Shown: positions 21,070 through 48,907, numbered from the stretch's first letter. The stretch: DNA of 64,000 bases from Deltaproteobacteria bacterium (GCA_029261835.1 JAJDAO010000031.1:18-64017), one strand, 5' to 3'. Made by a program: numbers and translations. The notes: generated by a model from the sequence alone, not told the origin.

Positions 21070-21120
21070 CTCATGTTGGCTTGCCGAGCTTCCGAAGAGG
21101 TAGTTACCTCAGAACGGAGA
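21070..21120 (+). promoter_or_regulatory. Repeated promoter+RBS unit, copy 1 (CTCATG-N15-TCCGAAGAGG...AACGGAGA)
   Basis: Matches 12 other intergenic copies; upstream A-tract. Confidence 0.8.
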
Positions 21121-21128
21121 ACCAAGCC

Positions 21129-21323
21129 ATGAACGACACGATCACAAGCTACGCACTCGACGCAAGCCAGCTCCCCGGCGCGATCGACTCACTCGGGACG
21201 ATCTTCGGCGTTGCCGCCGTTTCGCTCTTCCTCGTCGGAGACTTGATCTTCAACGGCGGTCAGCTCACGGCCGGTCCGCTGCTTCGCCTTTCGAGAAGCA
21301 TCAAGGCGAGGGCGGCGCGATGA
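21129..21323 (+). CDS. Small membrane protein
   Basis: ATG 8 nt after AACGGAGA; hydrophobic segment. Confidence 0.55.
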   Translation: MNDTITSYALDASQLPGAIDSLGTIFGVAAVSLFLVGDLIFNGGQLTAGPLLRLSRSIKARAAR

Positions 21324-21577
21324 CTATCTATTCAAGATTCGGATGCGAGATCGAGATCGTCCGAACTGCGTGCATTGCCGATGTCCGACATCTCGACGGC
21401 CGGGCGCCAGACACGTTCGACAGGGAGTCAGTTTCGCGAGGCGCATACGTCGTTGCCAAGCGCGTCGAAGATGACGAAGAGTCCCTGCAGAACATTTGCT
21501 ATCTCAGGGCCGACGACGGCATGCGCGAGATCGCCGATGCGATCGAGATCGCTGACGGCAAGGCGGCGCAGTCATGA
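21320..21577 (+). CDS. Hypothetical protein
   Basis: ATGA overlaps at both ends; LRADDGMREI motif. Confidence 0.6.
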   Translation: MTIYSRFGCEIEIVRTACIADVRHLDGRAPDTFDRESVSRGAYVVAKRVEDDEESLQNICYLRADDGMREIADAIEIADGKAAQS

Positions 21578-22488
21578 TGCGCGCCGTCGATCTCTTCGCA
21601 GGCGCCGGCGGCTTCACGAGCGGCGCGAAGGCCGCAGGCATCGACGTGGTCTTCGCCGCGAACCATTGGATGGACGCGGTCGAAGCACACGAGCGCGCGC
21701 ACCCCGACGTCGAGCACGACTGCCAAGACCTGCGGCAGTTCGACTGGTCGACCTTGCCAGACTTCGAAGTGCTGCTCGCGTCGCCTGAATGCAAGGGCCA
21801 CACAAAAGCGAAGGGTAAGGAGCGCAAGCACCACGACGCGAGCCGTGCGACATCGTGGGCAGTGATCGACTGCGCCGAGACGTGCCGGCCGCCGCTCGTC
21901 GTCGTCGAGAACGTGCCCGAGTTCCTCGACTGGGAACTCTTCCCGAGCTGGGCCGACGCGATGCGCCGGCTTGGCTACACGCTGTCGCCGCACATCTTCG
22001 ACAGCGCCGATGTCGGAGTTCCTCAGAACCGCGTGCGCATGTTCCTGATCGGATCACTCGACGGCGAAGTCGAGATCGAGGCGCCGCACGTCGAGCACGT
22101 CAGCGTGCGCAGCGTGCTCGACCTCGACAACGTCGGCGGGCCTGTCTACACCGAACGTCGGGCCGCGAACACGATCAGCCGTCACGAAGCCGGCAGGCGC
22201 AATGTGGGCGACATCTTCCTCGCGCCCTTCTACGGAGCGGGCTCGGGCAAGACCGGCCGCAGCATCGACCGTCCATGCGGGACGCTCACGACGAAGGCGC
22301 GATGGTCGCTCCATAACGGCGATTCGATGCGAATGCTGACGACCGAAGAGACGCTCGCGATCGGCGGATTCCCGGCGAGCTACCTCGACGGCCTAGATAA
22401 CTGGACGAAGGCGAACACGATGATCGGAAACGCCGTGACTCCCGCCATGGGCGAACACGTCTGTTCGAATCTTCCTGAAGTTAGGTAG
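21574..22488 (+). CDS. DNA (cytosine-5) methyltransferase 1
   Basis: DLFAGAGG, LLASPEC, VENV, PQNRVR, GNAV motifs. Confidence 0.93.
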   Translation: MMRAVDLFAGAGGFTSGAKAAGIDVVFAANHWMDAVEAHERAHPDVEHDCQDLRQFDWSTLPDFEVLLASPECKGHTKAKGKERKHHDASRATSWAVIDCAETCRPPLVVVENVPEFLDWELFPSWADAMRRLGYTLSPHIFDSADVGVPQNRVRMFLIGSLDGEVEIEAPHVEHVSVRSVLDLDNVGGPVYTERRAANTISRHEAGRRNVGDIFLAPFYGAGSGKTGRSIDRPCGTLTTKARWSLHNGDSMRMLTTEETLAIGGFPASYLDGLDNWTKANTMIGNAVTPAMGEHVCSNLPEVR

Positions 22489-22562
22489 GCCCAAACGTCG
22501 AGCAAGGGGACACATAAGAAGCAAGGCCAGCAGCCCGAAGCCTCTCTCCCAAGGAAAGAACG

Positions 22563-22772
22563 ATGAGCACTGAAAAGAATCACGACCTATCGCCCGCAGA
22601 AGAGCGCGCGATCAATGACCTGCGTACTGCGACACGAAAGGTCTACGCGGCGTTCAGCCGCAACGATCTGCATCTCAGCGCTGAAGAGCTTCTTCGGAAA
22701 GTGAACGAGACGACAGCCATGTTCGACCTTCTCGCCGGCACGTCGCATAAGCCGCTCTCGGAGAACTTCTGA
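22563..22772 (+). CDS. Hypothetical protein
   Basis: RBS AAGGAAAG; short helical ORF. Confidence 0.55.
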   Translation: MSTEKNHDLSPAEERAINDLRTATRKVYAAFSRNDLHLSAEELLRKVNETTAMFDLLAGTSHKPLSENF

Positions 22773-22773
22773 C

Positions 22774-23676
22774 ATGCCACGCATTTGCTACGTCGGAAAG
22801 AGCTTCCGCCCCGACTCTCTGAGGATCATCGAACAGGCGAACGTGATTGTCGATGAATATGACGCGCAAGGGTTCACGCTCACGCTTCGCCAGCTCTACT
22901 ATCAGTTCGTCTCGCGCGACCTGATCCCCAACACGCAGCGCAGCTACAAGCGACTCGGAAGCATCATCTCCGACGCGCGGCTCGCCGGAATGATCGACTG
23001 GGAGCAGATCACAGACAGAACGCGTAACGTTCAGGCTCAGTCGCACTGGGACGACCCGTCGAGCATCATCGCAAGCGCGGCGCGCAGCTACGGCATCGAC
23101 CTTTGGCAGAGCCAAGATCGGCGCGTCGAAGTCTGGATCGAAAAGGATGCGCTCGCCGGCGTGATCGAAAACGTCTGCGCGGAGTGGGACGTCTCCTACC
23201 TGTCTTGTCGCGGCTACGTTTCGCAGTCCGAAATGTGGGTAGGCGCGCAGCGTTTCAAGGTCTACGACGACGCCGGTCAGCGGCCCGTCGTGATCCACCT
23301 TGGCGACCACGATCCGAGCGGGATCGACATGACGCGCGACATCCAAGACCGGCTGCGCATGCTCAGCGGAACCGACGTCGAAGTGCGTCGCATCGCGCTG
23401 AGCCGCGCGCAAGTCGATCAGTATGGATGCCCTCCGAACCCTGCGAAGCTGACCGACTCGCGCGCCGGAGACTACGTCGAAGAGCACGGCTTCAGCTCTT
23501 GGGAGCTTGACGCGCTCAGCCCACCGACCCTCGTCGAGCTGATCGACACCGAGATCGATTCGATCGTCGATCACGGGCTGTTCGAAGAGATTCGAACTCA
23601 GCAAGAATCCGAGCGTGAAACGCTGAAGGCGATCTCGGATCAATATGAGCGCGTCGTCGAAAACCTCGAGTCTTGA
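22774..23676 (+). CDS. Toprim-domain protein (Topo VI-A/Spo11/JetD-like)
   Basis: TLRQLYY, VWIEKDAL, CRGY, LGDHDPSGIDM motifs. Confidence 0.8.
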   Translation: MPRICYVGKSFRPDSLRIIEQANVIVDEYDAQGFTLTLRQLYYQFVSRDLIPNTQRSYKRLGSIISDARLAGMIDWEQITDRTRNVQAQSHWDDPSSIIASAARSYGIDLWQSQDRRVEVWIEKDALAGVIENVCAEWDVSYLSCRGYVSQSEMWVGAQRFKVYDDAGQRPVVIHLGDHDPSGIDMTRDIQDRLRMLSGTDVEVRRIALSRAQVDQYGCPPNPAKLTDSRAGDYVEEHGFSSWELDALSPPTLVELIDTEIDSIVDHGLFEEIRTQQESERETLKAISDQYERVVENLES

Positions 23677-23700
23677 GACTTTTTATTTCTCCGTGAAATC

Positions 23701-23760
23701 GGCAGGCCGGCTCAAGTCCAACGGGCCGGTCTGCCGAAGAGGCTGGTAACCCAACGGAGA
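23701..23760 (+). promoter_or_regulatory. Repeated promoter+RBS unit, copy 2 (hairpin type)
   Basis: CTCAAG-N16-GCCGAAGAGG...AACGGAGA; 11-bp IR at 23701-23711/23725-23735. Confidence 0.8.
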
Positions 23761-23768
23761 ATAGAACC

Positions 23769-24071
23769 ATGAAGACGAAGCCGAACACGATCAGCGAACG
23801 CGACTACAAATGGAAGATAGAGCCAAGCGCTCAGTGGACGATCTTCTCGCCGGAAGGCGATCGCATCGGCCAGATCGATGCAGTTTATGAGCAGAGCTAT
23901 GTCTCCGGCTCGTCGCGCAGCACGACTTACAAGATTGATTCCTACGAGGTCTCTGTTCGCGGCTTCGACGGTGACGCGATTTTCGCCGTCGTCGAGCACG
24001 GAGACAGCGCGCGCAAGGCATTGGCTGCCGCGAAGAGATTTGCGCGCGACCTTCACGGTCGCGACCAATGA
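23769..24071 (+). CDS. Hypothetical protein
   Basis: Follows promoter/RBS repeat. Confidence 0.7.
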   Translation: MKTKPNTISERDYKWKIEPSAQWTIFSPEGDRIGQIDAVYEQSYVSGSSRSTTYKIDSYEVSVRGFDGDAIFAVVEHGDSARKALAAAKRFARDLHGRDQ

Positions 24072-24979
24072 ATATCAAAGCGGTTGACCTCTTCGCCGGA
24101 GCAGGCGGCTTCACCGAAGGCGCGCAGCGCGCGGGCGTCGACGTGATCTTCGCTGCGAATCACTGGCCCGTGTCAGTGGATGCGCACGAAGCGAACCATC
24201 CCGGCGTCGAGCATGAATGCCAGGACTTGCGTCAGTTCGACTTCGAGTCACTGCCCGACTTCGACATGCTTCTCGCGTCGCCGGCGTGTCAGGGACACAG
24301 TACGGCCGGCCAGGGCAGCGACAGCGCGAGGGCCGCGAAGAAGCACGAGGCCGACCGCAACACGGCGCTTGCCGTGATCGAGTGCGCAGACAAGAAGCGC
24401 CCCGAGACAATCCTCGTCGAGAACGTCCCGCGCTTCGCCAAGTGGGAGCTGTTCGACTGGTGGTGCGACGGACTGCGCGTGCTTGGCTACCACGTCACGA
24501 GCACGCTTGTCGATGCCGCTGACCTCGGCGTTCCGCAGAACCGCAAGCGCATCGTCGTAGCGGCGTCGCTGAAGGCGCCGGTCGAGTTCGAGGCGCCGAA
24601 GAGCGAGCGCAAGCCATTCTCTTCGGTGCTGCTCGACATTGACGAAGGATGGACGTCGATCAAAGCCAAGAGCGCGAACATCCGCAAGCGCATCGACACG
24701 GGCCGCGAGAAGCACGGCGATCGCTTCCTGACTCAGTATGTGACGAAGCATCCGGGGCGCAGTCTCGATCGCCCGATCGGAACGATCACGACTGCGCCGT
24801 CTCACTGGCATCTCGTCGACGGCCAGCAGATGCGCTCGATCACGACGGCCGAGCTGCTCGCTGCGCAGGACTTCCGACCCGACTACATCATTCCCGACAA
24901 CGTCGCCCTTGCGACGCGCCTGATCGGAAACGCGATCCCTCCGGCGCTCGCTAAGTGGGCCATCGAACAGGCTGCCTGA
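24068..24979 (+). CDS. DNA (cytosine-5) methyltransferase 2
   Basis: DLFAGAGG, LLASPACQG, VENV, PQNRKR, GNAI motifs; paralog of 21574-22488. Confidence 0.93.
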   Translation: MNIKAVDLFAGAGGFTEGAQRAGVDVIFAANHWPVSVDAHEANHPGVEHECQDLRQFDFESLPDFDMLLASPACQGHSTAGQGSDSARAAKKHEADRNTALAVIECADKKRPETILVENVPRFAKWELFDWWCDGLRVLGYHVTSTLVDAADLGVPQNRKRIVVAASLKAPVEFEAPKSERKPFSSVLLDIDEGWTSIKAKSANIRKRIDTGREKHGDRFLTQYVTKHPGRSLDRPIGTITTAPSHWHLVDGQQMRSITTAELLAAQDFRPDYIIPDNVALATRLIGNAIPPALAKWAIEQAA

Positions 24980-24995
24980 TTTTTTTCAAAGTCGC

Positions 24996-25046
24996 CTCAT
25001 GTCGCGGGCTCAGGCTTCCGAAGAGGTATGTAACCCCGAACGGAGA
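24996..25046 (+). promoter_or_regulatory. Repeated promoter+RBS unit, copy 3
   Basis: CTCATG-N15-TCCGAAGAGG...AACGGAGA. Confidence 0.8.
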
Positions 25047-25053
25047 CTGAACC

Positions 25054-25551
25054 ATGAACGACCGCACCAAGACCGCCGCCCAAGCCATCCGCGCCGCGCT
25101 GAAGAGCGAGCTTTCCGCAAACTCGAAGAAGGTCAGCGTTCGCATCGATCGCTACTCGATGGGAAGCGCAATCCATGTCGAGATCAAAGATGCGAGCATG
25201 AAGTTCGCCGAGGTTCATGCGATTGCCTCTGCGTACGAAGAGGTCCGTCGCTGCGAGATCAGCGGCGACATCCTGAGCGGCGGCAACATGTACGTTTCTG
25301 TCGGCTGGAGCCATGGCGCACGCGGCGAGAGGGCGGCGCGTCACGTCGACGCCGTAAAGGAAGCGATGCAGGGAGCCGGCGCGCACGGCGGCTTCTACGA
25401 CGTCAGTAGCGCGCGCGGCGTATCGGTCGTGACCGACGGCGTCGGCGGCTTCCAGCTCTTCAAGGGCGGCGCCGCCGGCATGCATGTGAACACGGCCGAG
25501 ACGGCCGCCGCGATCGTTGCCGACTACGTCGACGAACTCGCCGCAGCTTGA
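25054..25551 (+). CDS. LPD29-like domain protein
   Basis: AQAIRAALK...KVSVRIDRYSMGSAIHV pattern. Confidence 0.6.
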   Translation: MNDRTKTAAQAIRAALKSELSANSKKVSVRIDRYSMGSAIHVEIKDASMKFAEVHAIASAYEEVRRCEISGDILSGGNMYVSVGWSHGARGERAARHVDAVKEAMQGAGAHGGFYDVSSARGVSVVTDGVGGFQLFKGGAAGMHVNTAETAAAIVADYVDELAAA

Positions 25552-25907
25552 ACGCCAGCGCGCGACCGCCGAGCCTCGCAAGAGTGCTCGGCGGTCGCGC
25601 AGCCATAGAGAGACGGCATACAATGATCGCGCAACCCTACACAGAGCCAAAGACGCCAGTCGACGAAGCCTTCGAGGCCGCCCGCAACGGAAGCGCGGCA
25701 TCGATGATCGAGTGGCGTGAGCACTTCATCCGCGAAGCGCGCGACAGAGGCCTTTCGAAAGAAACGCGAGCGTTTGCCGCGACCTTTGTGCGCAACCTGA
25801 CTCCGTGGGGCAGGACTCGCGGGTTCTGGCGCTGAAAGGCTTTTCGCTTGGATTTTATTCGCGATCGCCGTTAGCATCTTCCGTCCCAACCCAACGGAGA
25901 TGAACAC

Positions 25908-26159
25908 ATGGCGGAAGCCACGAAGACCGGCGGCAAGCCGGCAGAAGGAGAGGCCAAGGGCGGCAAGCCTGCGGCCAGCAAGCCACGCAAGGAAAATCGA
26001 CCCGCGCACGTCATCGTCGCCGAGAAGATCAGCAGCATGGGCCTCGACGCGCTCGACGGCCTCGCCGCTGAGCTGGTGAAGAACTCGCCGCGCGGCGCGA
26101 AGTTCCTGCATGACTCGATCGCGGAGGCTGCGCAGGCCGCCGAGCGACCGAGCGCCTGA
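25908..26159 (+). CDS. Hypothetical protein
   Basis: RBS AACGGAGA upstream. Confidence 0.7.
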   Translation: MAEATKTGGKPAEGEAKGGKPAASKPRKENRPAHVIVAEKISSMGLDALDGLAAELVKNSPRGAKFLHDSIAEAAQAAERPSA

Positions 26160-26163
26160 CGGC

Positions 26164-26436
26164 ATGGGCATTCTCGACAGCGGCGTGACCGTGGGCTTGC
26201 TGGCTTGCGTGATCGTCGCTGTCGTTTTCTGCCTAGCGCGCTGGCTCGGGTGCCTGAAGGGCCGCCATCGCTGGCGATCGTTTGCGCAAGAGCATGGCGC
26301 CGACATCCCGGAGCGGTTCATTCCAGAGGAAGACTCGGACGACCTGCGGCGCGAAGAGCTTCTTCGCGAGTACACGCGCCTTCGCTGCCGGCGCTGCCGC
26401 GCCACCATGGACTACGATCAGGAGAGAGCAAGGTGA
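26164..26436 (+). CDS. Membrane-anchored Cys/His protein
   Basis: TM helix, CLKGRHRW and CRRC motifs. Confidence 0.5.
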   Translation: MGILDSGVTVGLLACVIVAVVFCLARWLGCLKGRHRWRSFAQEHGADIPERFIPEEDSDDLRREELLREYTRLRCRRCRATMDYDQERAR

Positions 26437-27456: not shown

Positions 27457-27514
27457 TCGTCCGGTGAGGAACGTCGCGCTCGACCGGGAGAGACGGCGCG
27501 ACGTGATCAAACTG

Positions 27515-38576: not shown

Positions 38577-40433
38577 ATGGGCCGGCCCGTTCCATCGCTC
38601 ACGCTCGAAAAACTCGAGAAAGAGTTCCGTCTCGAAGAAGACGGCAAGTATCCGATTCATGTCGACGGCGACCTCGTCGGCTGGGCCTACCGATTCGGCC
38701 GAGAGTACGGCATCGAGTACGGCGACCTAGCTCTCGCCGCTCAGGAAGGCGTCGACCTGTCACGCGACCTCGACATCGGGCCTGCGCTCGTTACGGTTCA
38801 TTCGCACGACGGCAGTCAGGTTCTCGACGTCTTCGAGACGGAGTCGAAGCCGGTTCCATTTTGCACGCGTCTGCCGTTCTTCCTTCCGGGCGACGCGCCG
38901 TTCAGGGTCGACAAGCGCGACGTCGCCTATCGCGACTTCCTGATCGGCGGCGGGCCGACGCTCGACGAAGTGCCCGTCGGCGACCTCGATCGCTTCTATC
39001 GCTGGGGTCCGAGCCCCGACCCCGAAGACACTGACGCGACCGGCAGCGGTCGCGTGCATGCACATCGCAGCCCGGTCGAGATGTCGATCCTCGTTCGCGA
39101 CATCGTGCTTGGTGAGCAGCCGACGCACGAACAAGCGGCCGACCTCGATCGATGGATCGTCGAGCAATGCGCGCGCGGCTACTGGGCTACGCTCTGGATG
39201 AAGCCGCGCACGCTCGAAGACAAGCCGACCTATACGGGCGCCGACGTCGTCAGGATCGACGAGTTCGAGGTCTACGACGCACACGCCATGCGCGACTACA
39301 TTGTGCCCGGCGATGACTTCGAAGGGCCGCCCGGACTCGTTCTCGGCAACGGATACCGCGTCATGCTCGGAGGCTTCTGGGCGGGATTCGGTCGGCGCCT
39401 TCCCGAAGGCGTCGACTGGGATGGTTCCGGCCTCGCCGCCGGCAGCTCGCTGCATATGACCGTCGACTCGCTCGTCTTCGGCGCCGTGTTCTTCCGCAGC
39501 CAGGTTGCGGCCGAAGGCGCGCTGTCGCACTTCCAAGCTGCAAGCTCGTTCTTGTGGGCCGGCGAGAAGTGGCCGAGTCGCGGGCACGGCTGGCAGCTCG
39601 ACTGCGGAGCGAAGCTCGCTCCGGTGCTCCGCTACCAGAAGCCGCACGTCACGCACTCGGTCATCCGTTCAATCGAAAAGTCGCTCAACGTGCTTGCTGC
39701 TCAGAACAAGGGCGGCATGCCTGCGCCCGACAACGGCCAGACGATCGAGGGCGGGCACCTGACCTACGACGAGGTCAAGGTCGCGTTCGAAGATGTGATT
39801 CGCGCCGTGCATCCCGAGTGGAGTGACAAGCAGGTTCACGACGCCATCGTTCTCGGCGCGGAAAGCGACGCAGCTTTCTACGTCGGGATCCTGATCACGG
39901 GCCTCGACCATCTCCTGTCGCTTTGGGATGCCTACGGAGTTTGGCAGAAGCACCCCGACGGAGCACCAGCCGGAGCCGACATGCGACGCCTCGCGATGGA
40001 ACAGCACAAGTACGCGACGAACTTCCTCGTCAACATCTGCGCCAAGCCGAAGCTCGATGTTCATCAAGGAATCACTGCCGGCAAGCGCGTTCCGTCGGGC
40101 GGAATCTGGAGCGACGCCGGTACGGCGTTCGGCCTTGGCGAAGGCGGCGACGACGGGAACACGATCAAGGGCACGAACATTCGCTTTGTCGTCGGCGCGC
40201 TCGCGCTCTCGGCCACGCGTCACGGAATGCCCGAGATTCTCGAGATTGGCCGCACGACGCTCGGCATCTGCAATCAGGCGAAGTGGTGGAACGGGAAAGA
40301 CAAGACCGCCGCGATGCTCGAATGCCTGTGGCCTGTCGCCGCGCACTACGGATGGAACGGCACCTTCAACGTGAAGTCGCCATCGATCGTCGATCAAGGC
40401 AAGGCCGCTTCGACTGAGGTCGCGATCGTCTGA
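38577..40433 (+). CDS. Large hypothetical protein (618 aa)
   Basis: Long ORF with GGAGA RBS and downstream hairpin; no recognised family. Confidence 0.85.
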   Translation: MGRPVPSLTLEKLEKEFRLEEDGKYPIHVDGDLVGWAYRFGREYGIEYGDLALAAQEGVDLSRDLDIGPALVTVHSHDGSQVLDVFETESKPVPFCTRLPFFLPGDAPFRVDKRDVAYRDFLIGGGPTLDEVPVGDLDRFYRWGPSPDPEDTDATGSGRVHAHRSPVEMSILVRDIVLGEQPTHEQAADLDRWIVEQCARGYWATLWMKPRTLEDKPTYTGADVVRIDEFEVYDAHAMRDYIVPGDDFEGPPGLVLGNGYRVMLGGFWAGFGRRLPEGVDWDGSGLAAGSSLHMTVDSLVFGAVFFRSQVAAEGALSHFQAASSFLWAGEKWPSRGHGWQLDCGAKLAPVLRYQKPHVTHSVIRSIEKSLNVLAAQNKGGMPAPDNGQTIEGGHLTYDEVKVAFEDVIRAVHPEWSDKQVHDAIVLGAESDAAFYVGILITGLDHLLSLWDAYGVWQKHPDGAPAGADMRRLAMEQHKYATNFLVNICAKPKLDVHQGITAGKRVPSGGIWSDAGTAFGLGEGGDDGNTIKGTNIRFVVGALALSATRHGMPEILEIGRTTLGICNQAKWWNGKDKTAAMLECLWPVAAHYGWNGTFNVKSPSIVDQGKAASTEVAIV

Positions 40434-40485
40434 TCCGTGCTAGGCTCTGGGCGCTGGCATGGGTTGAGAGTCCCGAAAAGTAACT

Positions 40486-40524
40486 GACGCCTGTCTCGTC
40501 GAGCAGCCGAGGCAGGCGTCTTTC
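40486..40524. terminator. Hairpin between convergent genes
   Basis: GACGCCTGTCTCG...CGAGGCAGGCGTC then TTTC. Confidence 0.6.
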
Positions 40525-40810
40525 ATTTGCGCTTGATCATGCCCGCGCGAACCATTTCATTGTGACGCTGCTCCGCGCGCGCATGCGTCCTGTCGACGCG
40601 CATTCCGCGATCCCACCACTGATGATCGCACGGGTAGCAGCGCGCCGCGAGCCGCACGATGCCGCCGGGGTTGCTGCGCTTCGACTTGATGCGCGCATCG
40701 TGGTAGGTGTTGAACGTCCCGCACTTCGGGCACTTCGCAGAGATCATCGAGGCGACGCGCGCGAACGGCGTCGCACTTGAGCCCGATGCGGTCGGCTGGC
40801 CTGACGTCAT
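40523..40810 (-). CDS. Zn-finger hypothetical protein
   Basis: CPKC...CYPC pairs; start uncertain. Confidence 0.5.
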   Translation of the reverse strand: MTSGQPTASGSSATPFARVASMISAKCPKCGTFNTYHDARIKSKRSNPGGIVRLAARCYPCDHQWWDRGMRVDRTHARAEQRHNEMVRAGMIKRK

Positions 40811-41252
40811 CGTGCGCCCGCTTTCGCTGCGCGCTGAATGAGAACGAGTCCGGCGGCGATGTCTTCGAGCGTCGGGCCTGTCGGCGAACGCTTCATGTGG
40901 TCGGCGAGGCAGCTCGCGGCTTCGAGTTCTTCAGGGCTCCAATCGAAAGCGGCGGAGGCCTCTTCGAGCGCGCCGAGCGCAACGGACATCAGCGCGACAG
41001 CGCGTGCCGTTACGACATCAGCGCAAGGTTCTGGTCTAGGTACAGGCATGCACGCTCTCCGAGTAGGAAGTGGAAGGGCCGAGACGCGCATTACCCCCGA
41101 CTCGCATGATCGGCCGTCGCCTAACGAGCCAGGACCGTCCCGCGCTATCACTCGGGCAAGAGATGCGCAGGGAGACACCGGCGCACTTCACGGCCCTTCC
41201 GACGAGAAGCCTACCTTGCGCATTTTCGTTTGTCGAATAATATCAAACCTCG

Positions 41253-41284
41253 CTCATGTCGCTGCGGCCATCCGCCGAAGATAG
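41253..41284 (+). promoter_or_regulatory. Repeated promoter unit, copy 4
   Basis: CTCATG-N15-GCCGAAGATA. Confidence 0.65.
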
Positions 41285-41317
41285 CTGCTCAAGCGGACCT
41301 CTCCCGGAAAACATCCA

Positions 41318-41635
41318 ATGAAGACCGTCACACGCAAGATCGGAAGCAACCGAGGCCGGCCGCGCCTCTGGCTCGAAGGCAAGCTGCTGAGCGACGCAGG
41401 GTTCAAGCCCGGCGATCGCTACGACAGGACTTTCGGTTCAGGGCTGACCATACTTCTTCAGAAGCGCTCAGATGGCGCCTACACGGTGAGCGGGAAAGGC
41501 GAGAAGCCGATCATCGACATCGCCGGCGCCGATCTGATCAGGGCCTTTAGCAAGCTCGGCGTCATGCCGAAGTCTGTCAGCGTCAAGGCTCTTGAACGAG
41601 GCTCAGGCATCGTCTGCGACGCGATCTTCGAATAG
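41318..41635 (+). CDS. SymE/AbrB-fold-like protein
   Basis: PRLWLEGKLLSDAGFKPGD resembles SymE-type LxGxWLxxAGFxxG. Confidence 0.55.
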   Translation: MKTVTRKIGSNRGRPRLWLEGKLLSDAGFKPGDRYDRTFGSGLTILLQKRSDGAYTVSGKGEKPIIDIAGADLIRAFSKLGVMPKSVSVKALERGSGIVCDAIFE

Positions 41636-41647
41636 AATGAAACTCAT

Positions 41648-41698
41648 CTCATGTTACTGGGCGCCTCTTCCGAATAGGTAGGTAACCCCGACAAGGAA
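41648..41698 (+). promoter_or_regulatory. Repeated promoter+RBS unit, copy 5
   Basis: CTCATG-N15-TCCGAATAGG...AAGGAA. Confidence 0.75.
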
Positions 41699-41704
41699 CA
41701 CGAG

Positions 41705-41887
41705 ATGAACAGCCCGCGCATCGACAGCAACCTGACCTTCTTCCCTCACCACATCGCCGAAGCCAAGGCCGCAGCGCTTCAGGAGAGCGACCCCGAATGG
41801 AGCTACTTCGCACTTCCCTGCATCGTCGGCCCTTACTCGATCATCTTGGCGATCGACGAAGAGGGCGCTCTGCTCGGGAACTTCTAG
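41705..41887 (+). CDS. Small hypothetical protein
   Basis: Follows promoter/RBS repeat. Confidence 0.65.
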   Translation: MNSPRIDSNLTFFPHHIAEAKAAALQESDPEWSYFALPCIVGPYSIILAIDEEGALLGNF

Positions 41888-41997
41888 ACGAGATGCCAAG
41901 CATGAAAACACGCAAGCACTACGGCAGCGCGCGACGTCGCGGGCTGCTTCGACAAGGCCTGTTGCACAGGACAAGGCAGGCCGCATCCGAGAGGCTT

Positions 41998-42384
41998 ATG
42001 AGCACACGCGAACAACAGGGCGCGCTCGCGCGCCAATGGATCGAAAGCAGGATCTCGCCGCACATCTCGATCGAGAAGTTCAAGCACTACACGCCGCATG
42101 AGATCAAGCAAGTCTCGCTCGGGCAGCTCAAGACGTCGATCGAGTGGTACGCAGCGCGGTTCAGCAACGGCAGCGCGTGCGTCTACACGAGCGCGTCTGG
42201 CAATGGCGCGCAGATCGTCTCCGAGACGACTCAGCTCGAATGGCATCGAAGCCTCGATCAGCTTGTCGCGACGATCGCTCTTGACATCGCGAACACGTTC
42301 GCTGAGCGCGACGAGGAAAAGGCGATCGAGTCGAGGCGCAAGGCAGACGCGCTGCTCGTGTTCACGAAACAGGAGACGGCATGA
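41998..42384 (+). CDS. Hypothetical protein
   Basis: GAGG RBS before ATG 41998; ATGA overlap with ArsR gene. Confidence 0.55.
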   Translation: MSTREQQGALARQWIESRISPHISIEKFKHYTPHEIKQVSLGQLKTSIEWYAARFSNGSACVYTSASGNGAQIVSETTQLEWHRSLDQLVATIALDIANTFAERDEEKAIESRRKADALLVFTKQETA

Positions 42385-42749
42385 TCACCAAAGGCAAGCT
42401 CGCGAGCGAAGGCATCCGAGACATCTGCGCGAAGCTGTCTGCTCTTTCAGACACGACGCGCATGCGGATCATCGAGGCCTTGGTCAACGACACCGATGAC
42501 GTCGGAGTCTGCGTCGGGGGGCTCGTCGAAGCACTCGGCATTGACCAGCCGAAGATCAGTCATCATCTTGCTGCGCTGCGCTCTGCCGGTCTCGTCACGA
42601 GCGAGCGCTGCGGCCGGCACATCTTCTATCGGCCAGCGTGGCAGTATTCATCGGGCGGGCACTTCCTCGCAGGCCAGCGGCCAGGGCGCGCGGCCTTCAA
42701 GATGGACGGCCTGTCGATCGTCTTAGACTTCGACGAGGCCGTGCGCTGA
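42381..42749 (+). CDS. ArsR/SmtB-family winged-HTH regulator
   Basis: LSALSDTTRMRII...CVGGLVEALGIDQPKISHHLAALRSAGLVTSERCGRHIFY. Confidence 0.9.
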   Translation: MITKGKLASEGIRDICAKLSALSDTTRMRIIEALVNDTDDVGVCVGGLVEALGIDQPKISHHLAALRSAGLVTSERCGRHIFYRPAWQYSSGGHFLAGQRPGRAAFKMDGLSIVLDFDEAVR

Positions 42750-42909
42750 ATCTCGAGTTTCGTCTCAAGTGCCGACTGCGCAGCAAGCTATCGGCCGCGC
42801 AGTCGGCGTCATCGATCTATCCCCGCGCCGGGAAAGACCGTCTCCCGCGAGCGACAAGCTCGAAGGCGATCGGGCATCCTCGGCCAGCCATCGAAGAAAG
42901 TCAAACCGC

Positions 42910-43347
42910 ATGAGCGATCTTGGAAAAGGAACGTCTCGACGTCGCGATGAGTTCATCGAAGCGGTTCGAGGCGTCTGCAGATCTCACGGCGTTTCGCTTT
43001 CCCATGAAGACGGTCACGGCCTGTTTGTCGTCACGGACTGGAACCGATCGGACGACGAGTGGATGGCAGACGCCGTCGACAAAATCGAAACGAGCGACGC
43101 GATGATATCTAAGGCGTCAGGCTGCAGCCTTCCGGTCGACTACTCGTGCAAGGTCGTCAAGAGGCGCTGCAAGGGCTCGACCGCATGGAACCCGACAGGC
43201 GAGTCGTGGACGTGGAAGGTCTCGACGACGTGCGGAACGGTTGCGTTCGGGCCTCGCCTTAGCTGGCCCGACAAGTCGGAGAAAGACCTGCGCATTTTTC
43301 TTGATGCGCTCGGGTTCACGGATCAGAAAATCGAGGTCGTTGAATGA
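42910..43347 (+). CDS. Hypothetical protein
   Basis: VCRSHGVSLSHEDGHGLFVV motif; ATG 42910. Confidence 0.55.
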   Translation: MSDLGKGTSRRRDEFIEAVRGVCRSHGVSLSHEDGHGLFVVTDWNRSDDEWMADAVDKIETSDAMISKASGCSLPVDYSCKVVKRRCKGSTAWNPTGESWTWKVSTTCGTVAFGPRLSWPDKSEKDLRIFLDALGFTDQKIEVVE

Positions 43348-43871
43348 GCAAGCGATACGGAAGAAACCAAAAGCGACGCGCGCGAGAGCGTATTCAAAGC
43401 CTTGAATCTCAGTGCTCTTCGCTGCGCCTATCTGCCGAAGCGCTACGCAGCAAAGAGAGCAAGTCGGCGAGGCTGATGCAGTTCGTGAGCGCGCGACTCA
43501 GGGAGGTCGGAGCGGACATGTCGCCCATGGAAGAAGCGCGATCGATCGAGCTGCGCCTTCCTGAAGACGCAAGGGAGTTCCGGCTTCCCGTTCATGGCCC
43601 CGCGCTGTCTATTCACGAGGCTGGCGCGCTGGCCGCTCTCGATTCGATCGCAGAGTCAGTGGCGATGCGTGTCATCGAAGCCGGCATCGAGAGGTCGGCG
43701 GGCGATCTTCGCGGAGAGGTTCATGCCTACGCGACATTCGGAAGCAGCCGAAGGGCCGTGTACACGATGAGCGATCAGGCTTTCTTTGAGGCTTCCTACA
43801 GCGGGCGCATTCACGAAGAGATCGCGCGCAGGCTGAATGAAGAGCTTCACCGCATACCTCCGTTCAGGTAA
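43344..43871 (+). CDS. Hypothetical protein
   Basis: MSKRYGRNQKRRARERI N-terminus; ATGA overlap. Confidence 0.7.
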   Translation: MSKRYGRNQKRRARERIQSLESQCSSLRLSAEALRSKESKSARLMQFVSARLREVGADMSPMEEARSIELRLPEDAREFRLPVHGPALSIHEAGALAALDSIAESVAMRVIEAGIERSAGDLRGEVHAYATFGSSRRAVYTMSDQAFFEASYSGRIHEEIARRLNEELHRIPPFR

Positions 43872-43940
43872 TCCGAAACCAGGTTCAAGTCGCCCTGCTT
43901 GTCTGCCGAAGAGGATGGCATCCCAAACGGAGACAGCTCG

Positions 43941-44222
43941 ATGATCAACGACTACGGAATCGAAACCGACGCGATCGCAGTCCGCGACGTGATCGCCTTC
44001 AAGCTCGACGTCGAGCACTACGCCGAGATCATCGAGGTACGTCGATCGCGCCTCGGCGGGCGCGAGTTCGTCGTCAGGATGCGCGAGGAAGATGGCGAGG
44101 CGCAGCTCGAAGCGGGCGACGAGCATGCAGTCTGGGAGCGCGACGCGTTCGATCACTTGCCATCCAAGCGCGGAGTCTCTGAGATTTCTTCGAAGTCGGC
44201 TCATGTTGAGCGGTTCGCTTGA
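43941..44222 (+). CDS. Cassette ORF, hypothetical
   Basis: ATG after AACGGAGA. Confidence 0.6.
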   Translation: MINDYGIETDAIAVRDVIAFKLDVEHYAEIIEVRRSRLGGREFVVRMREEDGEAQLEAGDEHAVWERDAFDHLPSKRGVSEISSKSAHVERFA

Positions 44223-44257
44223 CGAAGAGGTAGGTACCTCGCAACGGAGACTCAGCA

Positions 44258-44488
44258 ATGAGCAACGAAGCCAAAGCAAACGAAGCGCCCGCGCCCGACC
44301 AAAGCATCGACGCAGAGCTTCTGCGCGACTTGGTCGCCGAACTTTCTGACGCCGCGAAGCGCCGGATCGTGAAGAAGTACAAGAAGCGCGTCGACGGCAT
44401 GCGCAACAGCCAGACGCCAGGGCATGCGTTCTGGTTTCCCGAGCACTCCGCCGCATTGCAGCGCGTGAAGAGCGTCATCGGCGTTTGA
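44258..44488 (+). CDS. Cassette ORF, hypothetical
   Basis: ATG after AACGGAGA; TGA followed by GAAAAAA. Confidence 0.7.
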   Translation: MSNEAKANEAPAPDQSIDAELLRDLVAELSDAAKRRIVKKYKKRVDGMRNSQTPGHAFWFPEHSAALQRVKSVIGV

Positions 44489-44564
44489 GAAAAAAGGCAG
44501 CCGGCGCTCAAGTCAAAGGGCGCCGGCTGCCGAAGAGGCTGGTAACCCAACGGAGACTCTGACG

Positions 44565-44903
44565 ATGACCACCAAGATCAAGTTCGCTCGCGCCCTCGGG
44601 CGCTGCCGCGCTTGCAAGGCCGGCGTCTCTGCCCCTGTGATCAAGGTCATGACCGAGCGCGGAGAGCATCGCCCCGGCGTGCCGATCATCAAGACCGAGT
44701 TCGTTTGGGCGACCCGTCGCGCCGCGCGCCCCGTGCGCTTCAGCTCCGCGAGTGTTGAATGCGCGTGCGGCGCGGCAGTGAGCGTGTCCGTCGTCAAAGG
44801 CCGCGTGAACGCTGACGCCGCTTGCAACGCGAAGTGCGAGGCCTCGACCGGCCCGACCTGCGAGTGCGCCTGCGGCGGCGAGAACCACGGCTCTGCGCAC
44901 TGA
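44565..44903 (+). CDS. Cassette ORF, Cys-rich Zn-binding protein
   Basis: CRAC, CNAKC, CECACGGENHG. Confidence 0.75.
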   Translation: MTTKIKFARALGRCRACKAGVSAPVIKVMTERGEHRPGVPIIKTEFVWATRRAARPVRFSSASVECACGAAVSVSVVKGRVNADAACNAKCEASTGPTCECACGGENHGSAH

Positions 44904-45002
44904 GAAAAGATCGCCTGCAGGTATCAAGTCGCAGGCTCGACTTCGACGAAGAGGCTGCTACCGGCAGCAAGCCGCAGCCGGGCAAAACGAAAGGGAAGCG
45001 CC

Positions 45003-45323
45003 ATGAAGAACGACCACGATCAGCACGCCGGCGAGCATTGCGACTTCGAGCCTACGACTGGCGTTTGCGAGGTCTGCGGAGTTTCGAACGACATCTGCGA
45101 AGAGTGCGACGGCGTCGGCTATCACCGCGACGACTGCGCGCACGCCGACAGCGGAGATGCTCTCTTCGACGCGATTCAGGCGCCGCTCGCCGAGGCCTTC
45201 CGGTTGCTGCGCGGGCTCGACGAGGAACTCTGCGAGGCCTCGGCTCGCCTTGCCGAACTGAAGCCGGGCGACCTCGCTCGCGTGCGCAAGATCGTCGACA
45301 CCCTGAAGCAGATTCGGATCTGA
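45003..45323 (+). CDS. Cassette ORF, Cys/His-rich protein
   Basis: CEVC, CEECDGVGYH. Confidence 0.7.
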   Translation: MKNDHDQHAGEHCDFEPTTGVCEVCGVSNDICEECDGVGYHRDDCAHADSGDALFDAIQAPLAEAFRLLRGLDEELCEASARLAELKPGDLARVRKIVDTLKQIRI

Positions 45324-45399
45324 GAAAAATCTCGAGATCAGCTCAGGTTGCGAGCGCCGGCTTCCGAAGAGGTATGTACCTCGCGACGGAGATCGCACG

Positions 45400-45690
45400 A
45401 TGAGCTACACAAAGAAAAGCCCGGCCCGATTCGCCTGCTCGACCTGCGGCATCGCTCATGACGGCATGCGCGACGCCGTCGAATGCTGCCCCGAGATTCT
45501 TCTCAGCAAGCAGGTCGTCGCGTTTCTTCCGAGCCGCCCCGAGATCGGTTCGGTCGTCTGGTCTGCCTTCGTTGCCTTCGAGACCGGCGACGTCGAGCGC
45601 AGGTTCAACTACTGGCATCGCCGCGCGCTGCGCGCCCTCGCGCGCGGCATGAGCGAGGCTGAGCACAACCCCGCTTGCTACGGCGTCTGA
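45400..45690 (+). CDS. Cassette ORF, Zn-finger-like protein
   Basis: CSTCGIAH...AVECCP. Confidence 0.7.
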   Translation: MSYTKKSPARFACSTCGIAHDGMRDAVECCPEILLSKQVVAFLPSRPEIGSVVWSAFVAFETGDVERRFNYWHRRALRALARGMSEAEHNPACYGV

Positions 45691-45767
45691 GAAAAAGCCA
45701 GCGCGCCTCTCAAGTCCATGGGGCGCGCTGGCCGAAGAGATTGTTACCCACGAACGGAGACAACGCC

Positions 45768-46001
45768 ATGAAGGCCCCGAGCAACAGACCGACCGAGAGA
45801 GTCAGCATCGCCGGCTACCTCGCCGACCTTCTTCATCAAGGCCCGGTCAACGGACAAGAGCACTACGTCGTGTCGCGAGCGAACGGCATGTTTCAGATCT
45901 GGACCGACGACCCGCCCGGCGCTTCCGACGGATACCCGCGCTGCGTGGTTCAGTCCGAAGACCTGAACAAGCTGCGCGCGTGGTGGAAGGCCAACGCCTG
46001 A
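45768..46001 (+). CDS. Cassette ORF, hypothetical
   Basis: ATG 45768 after AACGGAGA. Confidence 0.65.
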   Translation: MKAPSNRPTERVSIAGYLADLLHQGPVNGQEHYVVSRANGMFQIWTDDPPGASDGYPRCVVQSEDLNKLRAWWKANA

Positions 46002-46079
46002 GAGAAAAAACCTTCGGGCGGACTCACGTCGAGCCGCCCGAAGGTCGAAGAGGTTGTTACCCCCAAGCGAGCGACAGCC

Positions 46080-46355
46080 ATGACCAACGAAGCGAAGATC
46101 ATCTCGACTACGACCGACAGCGGCACGACCTGCGTCGCCGCGACCTGCGGCAAGAAGGAAGCCTTCCTGACCTTCAACGCCAAGCGCGGCGATGTCTCCG
46201 TGCTCTGCATCAACGCCGCGCATAGGGCCTACCGCGCGAGCCTTGGCCGCGTCTTCCGCAACGTCGACGAGGCCCTCGCGGCCTACAAGTCCGAGACCAT
46301 GCGTACAATGATCCGCGCCGGATACGCTGAAGCCTGCGCAGTTTTGATGGGCTGA
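46080..46355 (+). CDS. Cassette ORF, hypothetical
   Basis: Follows repeat copy 12. Confidence 0.7.
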   Translation: MTNEAKIISTTTDSGTTCVAATCGKKEAFLTFNAKRGDVSVLCINAAHRAYRASLGRVFRNVDEALAAYKSETMRTMIRAGYAEACAVLMG

Positions 46356-46431
46356 GCTAGCGATCGAAGAATCCCTGCTTTCGAAAAGTTCGAGACGTGA
46401 TAGTCTTTCCGGGATTGGAGCGGGAAGGCAT

Positions 46432-46644
46432 ATGGCGAAGATCGAATCGAAACGCGTGGTCAAGGGAACCGACGTCGCCGGATGGGTTGCGATGTGCCTA
46501 TGCCTAGAAAGCATCCGTTTCGCCGTCACGCCTAAAGAAGACGGCGAGTTCGAGTTCACCGCGAGCTGCGGGCCTGCGACGCTGCGGCGCATGGTCGCCG
46601 AGTTCGTGACTGCGCGAGAGGAAGGCGAAGACTATGGCGGGTGA
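46432..46644 (+). CDS. Hypothetical protein
   Basis: GGAG/GGAAGG upstream. Confidence 0.55.
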   Translation: MAKIESKRVVKGTDVAGWVAMCLCLESIRFAVTPKEDGEFEFTASCGPATLRRMVAEFVTAREEGEDYGG

Positions 46645-47119
46645 CGAAAAATCAGGCGAGTACAAAGAGCGCGCGCTCATAGCGATAAAATCCTATTTCG
46701 ACTGCGCCTTTGAATGCGACCGAGAGGAAGTCTTGCTCGCTCTCGCGAGGGATGACCTCGCGGTAACTGAAGAGCTGCTCATCATGGCCGACGCGAACGC
46801 GAAGGCTCGCGCACGCAGTTCGTTCTCGATGTTCTTCGCCGGCCCTGTCGGCATCGACGCCTTGGCCGACGACGTGCGGCCTTCGAGTCGCGCCGCGTGG
46901 AGTGCCGCATGGAATGAAGCGTGGAAGATCGAGGGTGCTCCACTGCGCAGTGCGCTTTACAGCGCGCGCCTCGACTTCATGAAAGACGTTCTCGGCTGGC
47001 GCTGCCGGCGCATTCAATGCGTTGATGTCGGCGAACCCAAGCCGGACGCGACCGCTTGCAAGGCGTGCGGAAAGTCGGCGCCGCTCGTCGATGGCGAATG
47101 CCCTGACTGCCGACACTGA
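46634..47119 (+). CDS. Hypothetical protein with C-terminal Zn ribbon
   Basis: CKAC...CPDC. Confidence 0.55.
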   Translation: MAGDEKSGEYKERALIAIKSYFDCAFECDREEVLLALARDDLAVTEELLIMADANAKARARSSFSMFFAGPVGIDALADDVRPSSRAAWSAAWNEAWKIEGAPLRSALYSARLDFMKDVLGWRCRRIQCVDVGEPKPDATACKACGKSAPLVDGECPDCRH

Positions 47120-47136
47120 GCAACGGGAGAGCAGAG

Positions 47137-47532
47137 ATGCCTGACCGAGTGGAAGACGCGAAGCTCGATGAGCTGCTCAAGCTAGAGCGCGGCGTCGGCC
47201 CGTCGGTCTATTTCGGCGTCGAGTACCAGCGCCGACACGAGCTGCGGCAAGAGCTTGCCGGCGCGCTCGCGGCAGAGGTCTTCGCGCTGCGCGCCGAGGT
47301 CGCGAAGATGCGCTGCCTGCGGACGCCTGAAGAGATTGAATCCGATGAAGAGCCGGCGCTCTGGTACGAACTTCCTGTGCGCGAGGCGCCAACGCTTTGC
47401 ACGCTAGCCGAGCTGCGCGAAGATCACGGAATCGAAAACGGCTTCGCTTGGTTTCAAAGCGTCTTCGCGTGGCTTCCGATCCCGAACCCGACGACAGATG
47501 TACTCATTCAGGGAGAGAACGACAATGACTGA
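47137..47532 (+). CDS. Hypothetical protein
   Basis: GGAG RBS; packed + strand run. Confidence 0.6.
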   Translation: MPDRVEDAKLDELLKLERGVGPSVYFGVEYQRRHELRQELAGALAAEVFALRAEVAKMRCLRTPEEIESDEEPALWYELPVREAPTLCTLAELREDHGIENGFAWFQSVFAWLPIPNPTTDVLIQGENDND

Positions 47533-48139
47533 CGAAGCACAGAGCCAGGTTGCGCGCACGATCGCGCTGCGCGGCGGACCGCTCGACCGCAGTTCCTACG
47601 AAGTGGTCAGCGGGTTCGACCCGCCGAACATGATCATCGTTCACGATCCCGAAGACTCTTCGTCCGTGCTCTGCTACCGAGTCGACGCCGAGGGTAGCGC
47701 AGCGTGGTTCGTGAGCAAGGCGCCGGCGCCTATGGCGCCGGCAAAACTCGAGACCGGCTTCCCGGTCGAGCTTGCCGACGGATGGACCTACGAACCGCTT
47801 TGGTGGAAGCCGGCCGGCAAGCCGAAGGTCTACCACTGGTGCATCCGCGCGCCGAACGTGTCTGCGCGCGAGGCGCCCGGCGCCGTGCTCTACATGTCAG
47901 AGCTTGAGCATGCGACCGAGGCTGCCCGCGACACCGAGGCGCGCAACACGCTTGCGGCTTGCGGGCACGACCCGAGCTGCGTCGGTCCGGTTCGCCCGAC
48001 GTGCGAAGGCTGCGATCAAGAGATCGACCCTGACACATGTTGGTGCGGCATCGCGAAGACAGGCCACTCTCGCGAAGAGCACTACTTCACTCCCATGGGT
48101 TGCGACTGCGGCCGCAAGCGCGTGGTGAGTCATGCCTGA
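47525..48139 (+). CDS. Hypothetical protein with C-terminal Cys/His motif
   Basis: CEGCDQEIDPDTCWCG...H...HYFTPMGCDC. Confidence 0.6.
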   Translation: MTDEAQSQVARTIALRGGPLDRSSYEVVSGFDPPNMIIVHDPEDSSSVLCYRVDAEGSAAWFVSKAPAPMAPAKLETGFPVELADGWTYEPLWWKPAGKPKVYHWCIRAPNVSAREAPGAVLYMSELEHATEAARDTEARNTLAACGHDPSCVGPVRPTCEGCDQEIDPDTCWCGIAKTGHSREEHYFTPMGCDCGRKRVVSHA

Positions 48140-48443
48140 CAAGGTCGCTGACCAGCACTTCGAAGGAGAGGCGCCGCGCCTCGTGTTCTTCTGCCCCGGC
48201 TGCGAGTGCGCGCACTGGGTTCGCGTCGAAGGCAGCATCCCGCCTGTGTGGCTATGGAACGAAGATCGCGAGTTCCCCACGTTCTCGCCCTCCGTGAAGA
48301 CGTGGTGGCCGACTCCCGAGGGCATGCACGTTTGCCATTCGTATGTTCAGGGCGGGCGCATGCGCTTCCTCGGAGATTGCACACACAAACTCAAGGGGCA
48401 GACTGTCGAGATTCCAGAATGGGAAAAGGCCTATGAACTCTAA
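48132..48443 (+). CDS. DUF6527-like protein
   Basis: FFCPGC..H, W.WN...PTFSPSV, CHSYV..GRMRFLGDCTH. Confidence 0.8.
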   Translation: MPDKVADQHFEGEAPRLVFFCPGCECAHWVRVEGSIPPVWLWNEDREFPTFSPSVKTWWPTPEGMHVCHSYVQGGRMRFLGDCTHKLKGQTVEIPEWEKAYEL

Positions 48444-48856
48444 GCCGATGACGACCACGGTCGTTGCACAGTGGCGCGGTCGCACGGGCCGCGTCGTCGC
48501 CAAGCTCGAACGCGTGTCGATGGTCGACGCGTCGTTGCGCTTGCGCATGTACACGTCCGACGGCAAGCGCGAGCGCTTCACCGATGTCGAGATGTCGAAC
48601 GACGAGGCGTGCGCTTGGGCCGAGTCGCACCTTACGGCGCCGTCGCTCTTGAACGCGCGCATCGAGAGGCCATGAGCCCCGTCTGCGTCTGCCGATGGCC
48701 GCGCGTGAAGCTCAGCGAGCACGGCGTCGAGTTCTGCGAGAAGTGCCTGTGCTCATGGCTTCCGAGCCATGGATCGCGGCAGCCGAAGAGCGTCGCGCCG
48801 GCGACGAGGCCGGGGCCTATCCCGACGCGACAGCAGCGAAGAAAATAAAGCCAGGT

Positions 48857-48907
48857 CTCAAGTGCGGCGGCTCGCCTTCCGAAGAAGGTATTACCCCCGA
48901 ACGGAGA
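48857..48907 (+). promoter_or_regulatory. Repeated promoter+RBS unit, copy 13
   Basis: CTCAAG-N15-TCCGAAGAAGG...AACGGAGA. Confidence 0.8.

Follow-up and report, generated by a model that had tools for sequence, protein, structure and literature searches.

The DNA analysed here, a stretch of 64,000 nucleotides (the window), represents nearly all of a 64,045-bp phage contig, C31, whose two ends have 34 nt in common. PHROG and Pfam scans indicated a siphovirus-like layout, with nearly all genes on the + strand. An original prediction, made from the sequence, had listed thirteen copies of a sigma28/FliA-like promoter with a shared ribosome binding site (RBS). These elements, here called cassettes, were investigated together with the genome bin that holds the contig. 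They lie in two of the following gene blocks.

~50.9 kb, across the contig ends, to ~20.6 kb: terminase through to the tail genes
21.0-25.8 kb: methyltransferase block with small open reading frames (ORFs); three cassettes, at 21.0-25.1 kb
25.9-40.4 kb: recombination/replication block (Sak4-like protein, SSB, Cas4-type exonuclease, helicase and primase-helicase)
41.2-49.6 kb: ORFan-rich block; ten cassettes inside

Motif, cassettes and promoter class

All thirteen motif copies were recovered where they had been placed, each on the + strand and each intergenic. The regular expression TCANGT-N14-17-CGAA[GT]A matched 13 times on the + strand of the window and once on the - strand, at 14234 within a coding frame. 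Its chance level, from 200 first-order Markov simulations of the window, was 0.245 matches on average and 2 at most. Allowing up to one mismatch, CCGAAGAGG gave 60 matches, compared to a mean of 26.6 in dinucleotide shuffles, and 0/100 shuffles reached 60. When the cassettes are aligned, T-C-A-n-G-T and C-G-A-A-n-A do not vary; between them the sequence is free. The spacer, counted as CTCAWG-Nx-CCGA, measures 16 nt in 8/13 sites and 17 nt in 5/13.

Both boxes fit the sigma28 class. The -35 box contains T-C-A in 13/13 cassettes and CTCA in 11/13, agreeing with the T(A/C)AA or CTCA form of that class. The -10 box contains CGAA in 13/13, CCGA in 10/13 and [G/T]CCGA in 10/13, and thus the central CGA. 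Its 3' bases are AGA instead of TAA, the box reading CGAAGA in 12/13 sites and CGAATA in one. The predicted RBS was likewise borne out for most copies: AACGGAGA is exact in 8/13 cassettes, ACGGAGA is found in 9/13, and the 12 copies of AACGGAGA in the whole window are all on the + strand. GAGG lies 26-28 nt before the ATG in 11/13 cassettes. An upstream A/T tract had also been noted, and the 22 nt 5' of the motif indeed contain 41-68% A+T, compared to 37% genome-wide. When numbered as in P. aeruginosa fliC, the predicted transcription start (+1) is an A in 12/13 cassettes, within a conserved GT-A-CC, and predicted leaders are 21-23 nt in 11/13. This placement of the start would explain the conservation 3' of the -10 box. 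The cassettes are listed below; all +1 positions are predictions.

P1, 21070..21131, + strand: CTCATGT, N16, TCCGAAGA; predicted +1 21106; RBS AACGGAGA; ATG 21129; followed by a 64-aa ORF, an 85-aa ORF, a DNA methyltransferase, a 69-aa ORF and a 300-aa ORF (PHROG 'DNA topoisomerase')
P2, 23711..23771, + strand: CTCAAGT, N17, GCCGAAGA; predicted +1 23748; ATG 23769; 100-aa ORF and the second DNA methyltransferase
P3, 24996..25056, + strand: CTCATGT, N16, TCCGAAGA; predicted +1 25032; ATG 25054; 165-aa and 95-aa ORFs
P4, 41253..41320, + strand: GCCGAAGATAG, without the shared RBS; predicted +1 41289; ATG 41318; 105-aa ORF
P5, 41648..41707, + strand: CTCATGT, N16, TCCGAATA; predicted +1 41684; ATG 41705; 60-aa ORF, then further genes including an ArsR-type helix-turn-helix (HTH) gene (42381-42749)
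P6, 43884..43943, + strand: TTCAAGT, N16, GCCGAAGA; predicted +1 43920; ATG 43941; 93-aa ORF
P7, 44200..44260, + strand: CTCATGT, N16, GACGAAGA; predicted +1 44236; ATG 44258; 76-aa ORF
P8, 44507..44567, + strand: CTCAAGT, N17, GCCGAAGA; predicted +1 44544; ATG 44565; 112-aa ORF
P9, 44923..45005, + strand: ATCAAGT, N17, GACGAAGA; predicted +1 44960; ATG 45003; 106-aa Cys-rich ORF
P10, 45342..45402, + strand: CTCAGGT, N16, TCCGAAGA; predicted +1 45378; ATG 45400; 96-aa ORF
P11, 45709..45770, + strand: CTCAAGT, N17, GCCGAAGA; predicted +1 45746; ATG 45768; 77-aa ORF
P12, 46023..46082, + strand: CTCACGT, N16, GTCGAAGA; predicted +1 46059; ATG 46080; 91-aa ORF
P13, 48857..48917, + strand: CTCAAGT, N16, TCCGAAGA; predicted +1 48893; ATG 48915; 90-aa then 130-aa ORF

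P4 is the weakest copy, with 23.6 bits on a position weight matrix (PWM) built from the phage sites. The -35 box of P7 overlaps the 3' end of the ORF before it, and the predicted leader of P9 is long (43 nt).

In excerpts of two published accounts the classical sigma28 promoter is given as TAAA-N15-GCCGATAA (PMC12871210, PMC12784957). Related forms in the first of these excerpts are T(A/C)AA-N16-GCCGATAA for WhiG2 and CTCA-N16-17-GCCGAACT for Actinoplanes WhiG1, with CGA at the centre of the -10 box invariant across the family and the final three bases variable (PMC12871210). For the P. aeruginosa fliC open complex, the excerpted text describes boxes at (-36)TCTAAAG(-30) and (-15)GCCGATAA(-8), with only A-11 read on the non-template strand and a spacer conserved neither in sequence nor in length (PMC12784957). 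Both boxes of the phage motif fit the published consensus, which supports the predicted assignment to the sigma28/FliA/WhiG promoter type. The spacing had been described as 1-2 nt longer than in sigma28 promoters. This stands relative to the classical N15 form, but the observed length equals the modal spacing in the host and that of the WhiG-type N16 and N16-17 promoters. Asymmetric boxes, a free spacer of fixed length, co-orientation with the genes and a fixed distance to the start codon together indicate sigma-type promoter anatomy rather than an operator. The canonical pattern TAAA/TCAA...GCCGA[TA]A had 0 matches in the phage. A simple scan for sigma70-type promoters returned 0 sites in 40,000-51,500, and a regular expression for them matched 1-2 times window-wide, at chance level.

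The phage was predicted to lack a sigma factor, and we found none: a six-frame search of C31 returned no Sigma70_r2 match at E<=1. None of 94 ORFs compared to PHROGs belonged to a sigma or RNA polymerase family. A Pfam scan of 74 ORFs gave no RNA polymerase family, and its lone sigma-like match was a weak Sigma70_r4 (E=0.0045, below cut-off) in a 117-aa HTH protein. The host FliA described below gave zero tblastn matches in the phage.

A FliA-family sigma factor and candidate promoters in the host bin

The genome bin that holds the phage contig (G000) was taken as the host. It is an uncultured Myxococcota of 6.5 Mb, ~65% GC and 95% completeness. One FliA/WhiG-family sigma factor exceeded the curated cut-off (TIGR02479, 280 bits vs 189.6, on G000 contig C56), and WhiG and FliA models agree on it. 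In total 21 host proteins scored above the Sigma70_r2 cut-off; the phage contig carries zero of these. The host FliA is 82-96% identical to proteins at 80 Myxococcota loci in metagenome-assembled genomes (MAGs). Flagellin, FliF and FlgM had no match in the binned genome, at its 95% completeness.

Host non-coding DNA was obtained by masking likely coding DNA (76% of bases), and the two boxes were counted in the remainder at every spacing x from 8 to 25. CTCAAG-Nx-CCGA[AT] occurred 10, 15 and 6 times at x=15, 16 and 17, respectively, compared to 0-5 times at the 15 other spacings. The -10 consensus of these 31 sites is [G>T]CCGA[T>A][A/G]A. The control cores CCGACGA, CCGAGGA and CCGTAGA were paired with the -35 box at 0/580, 0/426 and 0/194 non-coding host sites, respectively. 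The classical promoter pattern TTGAC-N17-19-TANNNT formed a separate enriched class in the same DNA (17, 33 and 24 vs 5-10), one that hardly occurs in the phage. Candidate regulon sites include those at C73:57.8 kb, before a pilin gene, and C30:69.7 kb and others on C43, C21 and C51, among ~30 candidate promoters of the form CTCAAG-N15-17-CCGAW. Several contigs of the bin (C17, C22, C23, C25, C27, C37 and C41, among others) have 35-47% GC, compared to ~65% elsewhere, and are probably mis-binned DNA of another organism.

Downstream of 20 scanned host sites we found genes for an N_methyl type IV pilin, three PilZ proteins, one methyl-accepting chemotaxis protein (MCP) and two CheY-like receivers. 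Others of these downstream genes encode a bactofilin, an FHA protein, a porin and a multihaem cytochrome, and a PilT-like ATPase gene lies 3' of a host TTCAAG...GCCGATAA variant site. Gene content of the pilin, PilZ, MCP and CheY kind is reported for sigma28-family regulons outside flagellar systems (PMC12871210). In this non-flagellated lineage the genes governed by the host FliA-family sigma appear to be those for type IV pilin, PilZ, chemoreceptor and CheY-like proteins.

The neighbourhood of fliA was examined in 80 loci from related Myxococcota MAGs (L083-L162, 478 kb). [CT]TCAAG-N16-CCGA[AT] was present in 57 copies in 48/80 loci, compared to 0-3 copies for any other spacing between 10 and 23. 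These fliA-flanking sites lie divergently upstream, before a histidine-kinase/response-regulator pair, and downstream, before a PP2C phosphatase gene. Two genomes of the host's order, G122 and G202, are small (2.2 and 2.8 Mb; 91% complete) and have no FliA match above cut-off. YTCAAG-N16-CCGAT matched 0 and 2 times in these whole genomes, compared to a mean of ~21 in 35 FliA-positive genomes of the class and 10-34 in relatives. We regard this contrast as suggestive only.

An orphan FliA-family sigma regulon in a non-flagellated uncultured Myxococcota is apparently undescribed so far. At entry level, literature searches returned no publication dealing with phage promoters that depend on sigma28, nor any on a Myxococcota FliA regulon. 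With a sigma factor of 82-96% identity among relatives and ~30 candidate promoters, the regulon is directly testable.

Gene context, hairpins and other phages

From P6 to P12, six one-gene units follow in succession within the ORFan block. No structural gene is preceded by a cassette. Judged from gene content alone, the cassette-driven genes are presumably early. Megablast of the 40-50 kb region against 50,697 phage records gave zero matches. Individual genes and further features of the contig are as follows.

21574-22488 and 24068-24979, + strand: pair of DNA methyltransferase paralogues (PHROG 116/363); each is the final large gene in a unit beginning at a sigma28-type cassette
38577-40433, + strand: 618-aa ORF, end of the replication block
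49675-49762, - strand: tRNA-Pro (CGG) gene, between the ORFan block and a minus-strand gene pair
50671-50686 (+ strand) and 50848-50863 (- strand): two perfect 16-nt inverted repeats, GTCGGAACGTCGGAAC, separated by 161 bp
55627-56943, + strand: sulfatase-family protein (PF00884, E 1e-38), within the head/portal module

Nowhere in the phage could a DNA polymerase be recognised. The 618-aa ORF was considered as a candidate polymerase and set aside: Pfam, PHROG and PDB gave no match to it, and Atlas searches weak leads only. The GTCGGAACGTCGGAAC repeats (chance expectation 0.01) flank a divergent, A/T-rich region; on one side of it is the minus-strand gene pair (49886-50688), on the other the RusA/terminase operon. 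They are a candidate operator pair at a likely late or regulatory promoter region. The sulfatase-family protein has five host paralogues at 28-30% identity.

Strong hairpins accompany 4/13 cassettes (23711, 44507, 45709 and 46023). Their stems of 10-15 bp are mutually unrelated in sequence and show compensatory pairing; the -35 box is held in the loop. Folding energies (dG) range from -29 to -33.5 and z-scores from -5 to -8.

P2 hairpin, 23699..23737, + strand: dG -30.6, z -5.1; 3' arm reaches into the -10 box; no A-run before
P8 hairpin, 44496..44531, + strand: dG -33.5, z -8.4; A-run before; read on the - strand, a stem-loop with T-run
P11 hairpin, 45697..45732, + strand: dG -29.4, z -6.6; A-run before
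P12 hairpin, 46010..46045, + strand: dG -29.1, z -8.2; A-run before

No strong hairpin was found at the remaining 9/13 cassettes (z -1.4 to +1.7), the one at 44923 having a weak 6-bp stem. On the + strand, no U-run lies 3' of the cassette stem-loops; read on that strand, the hairpins could end or stabilise the upstream message. Read on the - strand, a stem-loop with T-run would stop antisense transcription.

An exact-pattern scan of IMG/VR returned 61 loci with one match each, mostly chance-like. Only L038 proved multi-copy, and L036 and L055/L065 have one plausible intergenic copy each. The record behind L038 (G001) is a complete 77.8-kb phage of 69% GC with direct terminal repeats. It contains five copies of C-TCAAGT-N14-[G/T/A]CGAAGA, at 10465, 29121, 33825, 35865 and 36128, all on one strand. 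Every copy precedes an AGGAGG-type RBS and the ATG of a small ORF in the non-structural region, and the -10 is CGAAGA in 5/5 sites. A hairpin lies before two of the five sites, and one of these ends in a T-run. We detected no protein common to G001 and the window phage, and no sigma domain in G001. Five near-complete phages with TerL 53-67% identical to that of the window phage have 0, 2, 0, 0 and 0 motif copies. The motif therefore does not track phage lineage among these terminase relatives and recurs in the unrelated G001, a pattern that fits a host-supplied factor.

A second phage-like contig is present in the host bin (C97, 58,049 bp). It encodes distant homologues of the window phage's tail proteins and of its DUF6527 protein. 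Its topoisomerase-like protein shares 51% amino acid identity with that of the window phage, including a stretch of the gene that is 68% identical. The non-coding DNA of C97 has zero copies of the promoter motif.

Candidate readers of the cassettes and known systems

The original prediction had proposed that a host alternative sigma reads these genes. This is the best candidate to emerge: the phage has no recognisable sigma, the host has one FliA/WhiG protein, and host non-coding DNA contains the same boxes at the same spacing. We consider it probable that the host core polymerase, together with the single FliA-family sigma of the host, reads all thirteen cassettes. Each element may then be a full expression cassette composed of an A/T-rich tract, a two-box sigma28-class promoter, a 21-23-nt leader and a shared Shine-Dalgarno sequence. 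CTCAWG, at about -35 to -30, would be recognised by sigma region 4, and CCGA, at -14 to -11, by sigma region 2, with A-11 flipped out. Transcription would begin ~8 nt after CGAAGA, at the conserved A of GT-A-CC. The ORFan-rich region and the methyltransferase block would be driven in this way, presumably early. A broader proposition can be put forward only tentatively, and we hold it to be rather doubtful: that the whole non-structural programme depends on a host sigma28-family factor re-purposed, in Myxococcota that have no flagella, for type IV pili and chemosensing, and that the same trick arose in at least one unrelated phage.

A link between infection and a flagellated cell state, also suggested originally, could not be upheld. 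The host has no match to flagellin, FliF or FlgM, and its sites precede type IV pilin, PilZ, MCP and CheY-like genes. Any such link would be pilus-related or chemosensory, not flagellar.

Several observations weigh against the host FliA as reader. The phage is assigned to this host by binning and similar GC (0.63 vs 0.65) only, and a search of the remaining contigs of the bin for CRISPR-spacer-like or other short identity to the phage gave nothing beyond the C97 topoisomerase-like stretch. The host -10 prefers CCGAT(A/G)(A/G), with T in 22/31 sites and A in 9/31, whereas the phage uses CGAAGA, and a -35 box accompanies only 4/486 non-coding host CCGAAGA words. On the phage-built PWM the phage sites score 23.6-35.3 bits, by construction, and host sites <=25.7. 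This gap shows that the phage copies are far more alike than they are like host promoters, and form a tight family of their own. Scanning the host with the PWM returned no phage-like site; its 43 matches of >=17 bits, the top ones included, are mostly coding-looking. The strict phage regular expression gave 29 host matches, roughly chance level. The FliA-less contrast involves two small genomes, and a third genome with no FliA match (G157) has 12 matches. Phylum-wide whole-genome counts are confounded by coding background, some FliA-negative families having ~20 matches. They are weakly informative, as a reversed-pattern control fell far below the real background. The cassettes may have stayed alike through selection of a strong variant, through copying or recombination, or through a phage factor.

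The last of these, encoded by the phage, could be a small RNA polymerase, a specificity subunit or a sigma-like protein that escaped recognition, and it would read the cassettes or re-target polymerase to them; the sigma28 likeness would then be partial or convergent. Such a factor could account for phage copies that are mutually much closer than any host site is to them, and for the conservation of CGAAGA(GG) and of the GT-A-CC +1 region beyond known sigma28 reading. It could also be hidden among the 41-49 kb ORFs, most of which have no family, or in the unmatched 618-aa ORF. We nevertheless find it unlikely, given the negative Sigma70_r2 and FliA tblastn searches of the phage. G001 has the motif yet no detectable common protein and no sigma domain, and the host genome and 80 relatives have the same boxes at the same spacing before genes of their own. 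It is quite unlikely, in our estimate, that another host sigma (one of ~16 small extracytoplasmic function (ECF)-like or four large RpoD-like proteins) reads the host CTCAAG...CCGAW sites and the phage cassettes. The 21 sigma70-family genes above the r2 cut-off leave room for it, since FliA was assigned by consensus likeness, the fliA neighbourhood and regulon content. ECF promoters follow an AAC...CGT pattern, which the phage and host boxes lack. Conserved sites flank fliA in 48/80 relatives, and the motif is almost absent from two FliA-less relatives. The boxes match the sigma28-family consensus, including the invariant CGA, in the excerpted accounts (PMC12871210, PMC12784957), and the pilin, PilZ, MCP and CheY content is of the kind one of these reports for sigma28-family regulons (PMC12871210).

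Very unlikely, finally, is a set of repeats with no promoter role, whether ArsR/XRE-type operators, elements for RNA processing or stability, or purely recombination cassettes. The phage does encode an ArsR-type HTH, and 4/13 cassettes have strong hairpins with compensatory stems. The array also resembles the PeSLs of T4-like phages, promoter/terminator modules that mediate gene shuffling according to an excerpted report (PMC4122927). However, the motif consists of two asymmetric boxes around a free spacer of fixed length, neither palindrome nor direct repeat; it always has the orientation of the genes, and its distance to their start codons is fixed. A strong hairpin is missing at 9/13 cassettes, and the same boxes precede unrelated genes in the host, whose genome is without this phage's proteins. 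A role in shuffling would not replace promoter function but fit alongside it.

In textbook phages infection starts on the housekeeping sigma of the host, or else a polymerase or sigma is supplied by the phage itself. If the cassettes are indeed read by the host sigma28-family factor, infection success would be tied to the behavioural state of the host (pilus, chemosensory or c-di-GMP signalling). Should the phage adsorb to type IV pili, the cells open to its entry would be exactly those in which the sigma it needs is active. The cassettes would then also represent strong natural promoters for this factor, and phage transcription that depends on sigma28 may, in little-studied phyla, be a general strategy.

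The early promoters of T4 are of the sigma70 type. The PeSLs of T4-like phages are similarly short conserved cassettes between small variable genes, mostly of unknown function, in a plastic region, some combining a stem-loop with an early promoter. The present cassettes differ in being sigma28-type, and a strong stem-loop is found in only 4/13, where it surrounds the -35 box and does not lie ahead of the promoter. Phage promoter sets read by a phage polymerase or sigma (T7-type RNA polymerase, SPO1 gp28, T4 gp55) also comprise many near-identical one-strand copies conserved through the start site. Unlike these sets, the cassettes have two boxes and a variable spacer, the phage has no detectable polymerase or sigma, and the motif is also found in the host and in G001. 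Compared to sigma28/FliA/SigD/WhiG promoters, the cassettes differ in being phage-borne, in preceding ORFans and DNA methyltransferases, and in a -10 that ends AGA(GG), not TAA. No flagellar genes were recognised in the host, and the spacer is 1-2 nt above the classical enterobacterial/Bacillus form. In common with that class are the TCAA/CTCA -35, the CGA after C or GC, the free spacer of 16-17 nt and the A/T-rich upstream region, together with a FliA-family sigma in the presumed host whose sites serve motility, chemosensory and c-di-GMP-type genes.

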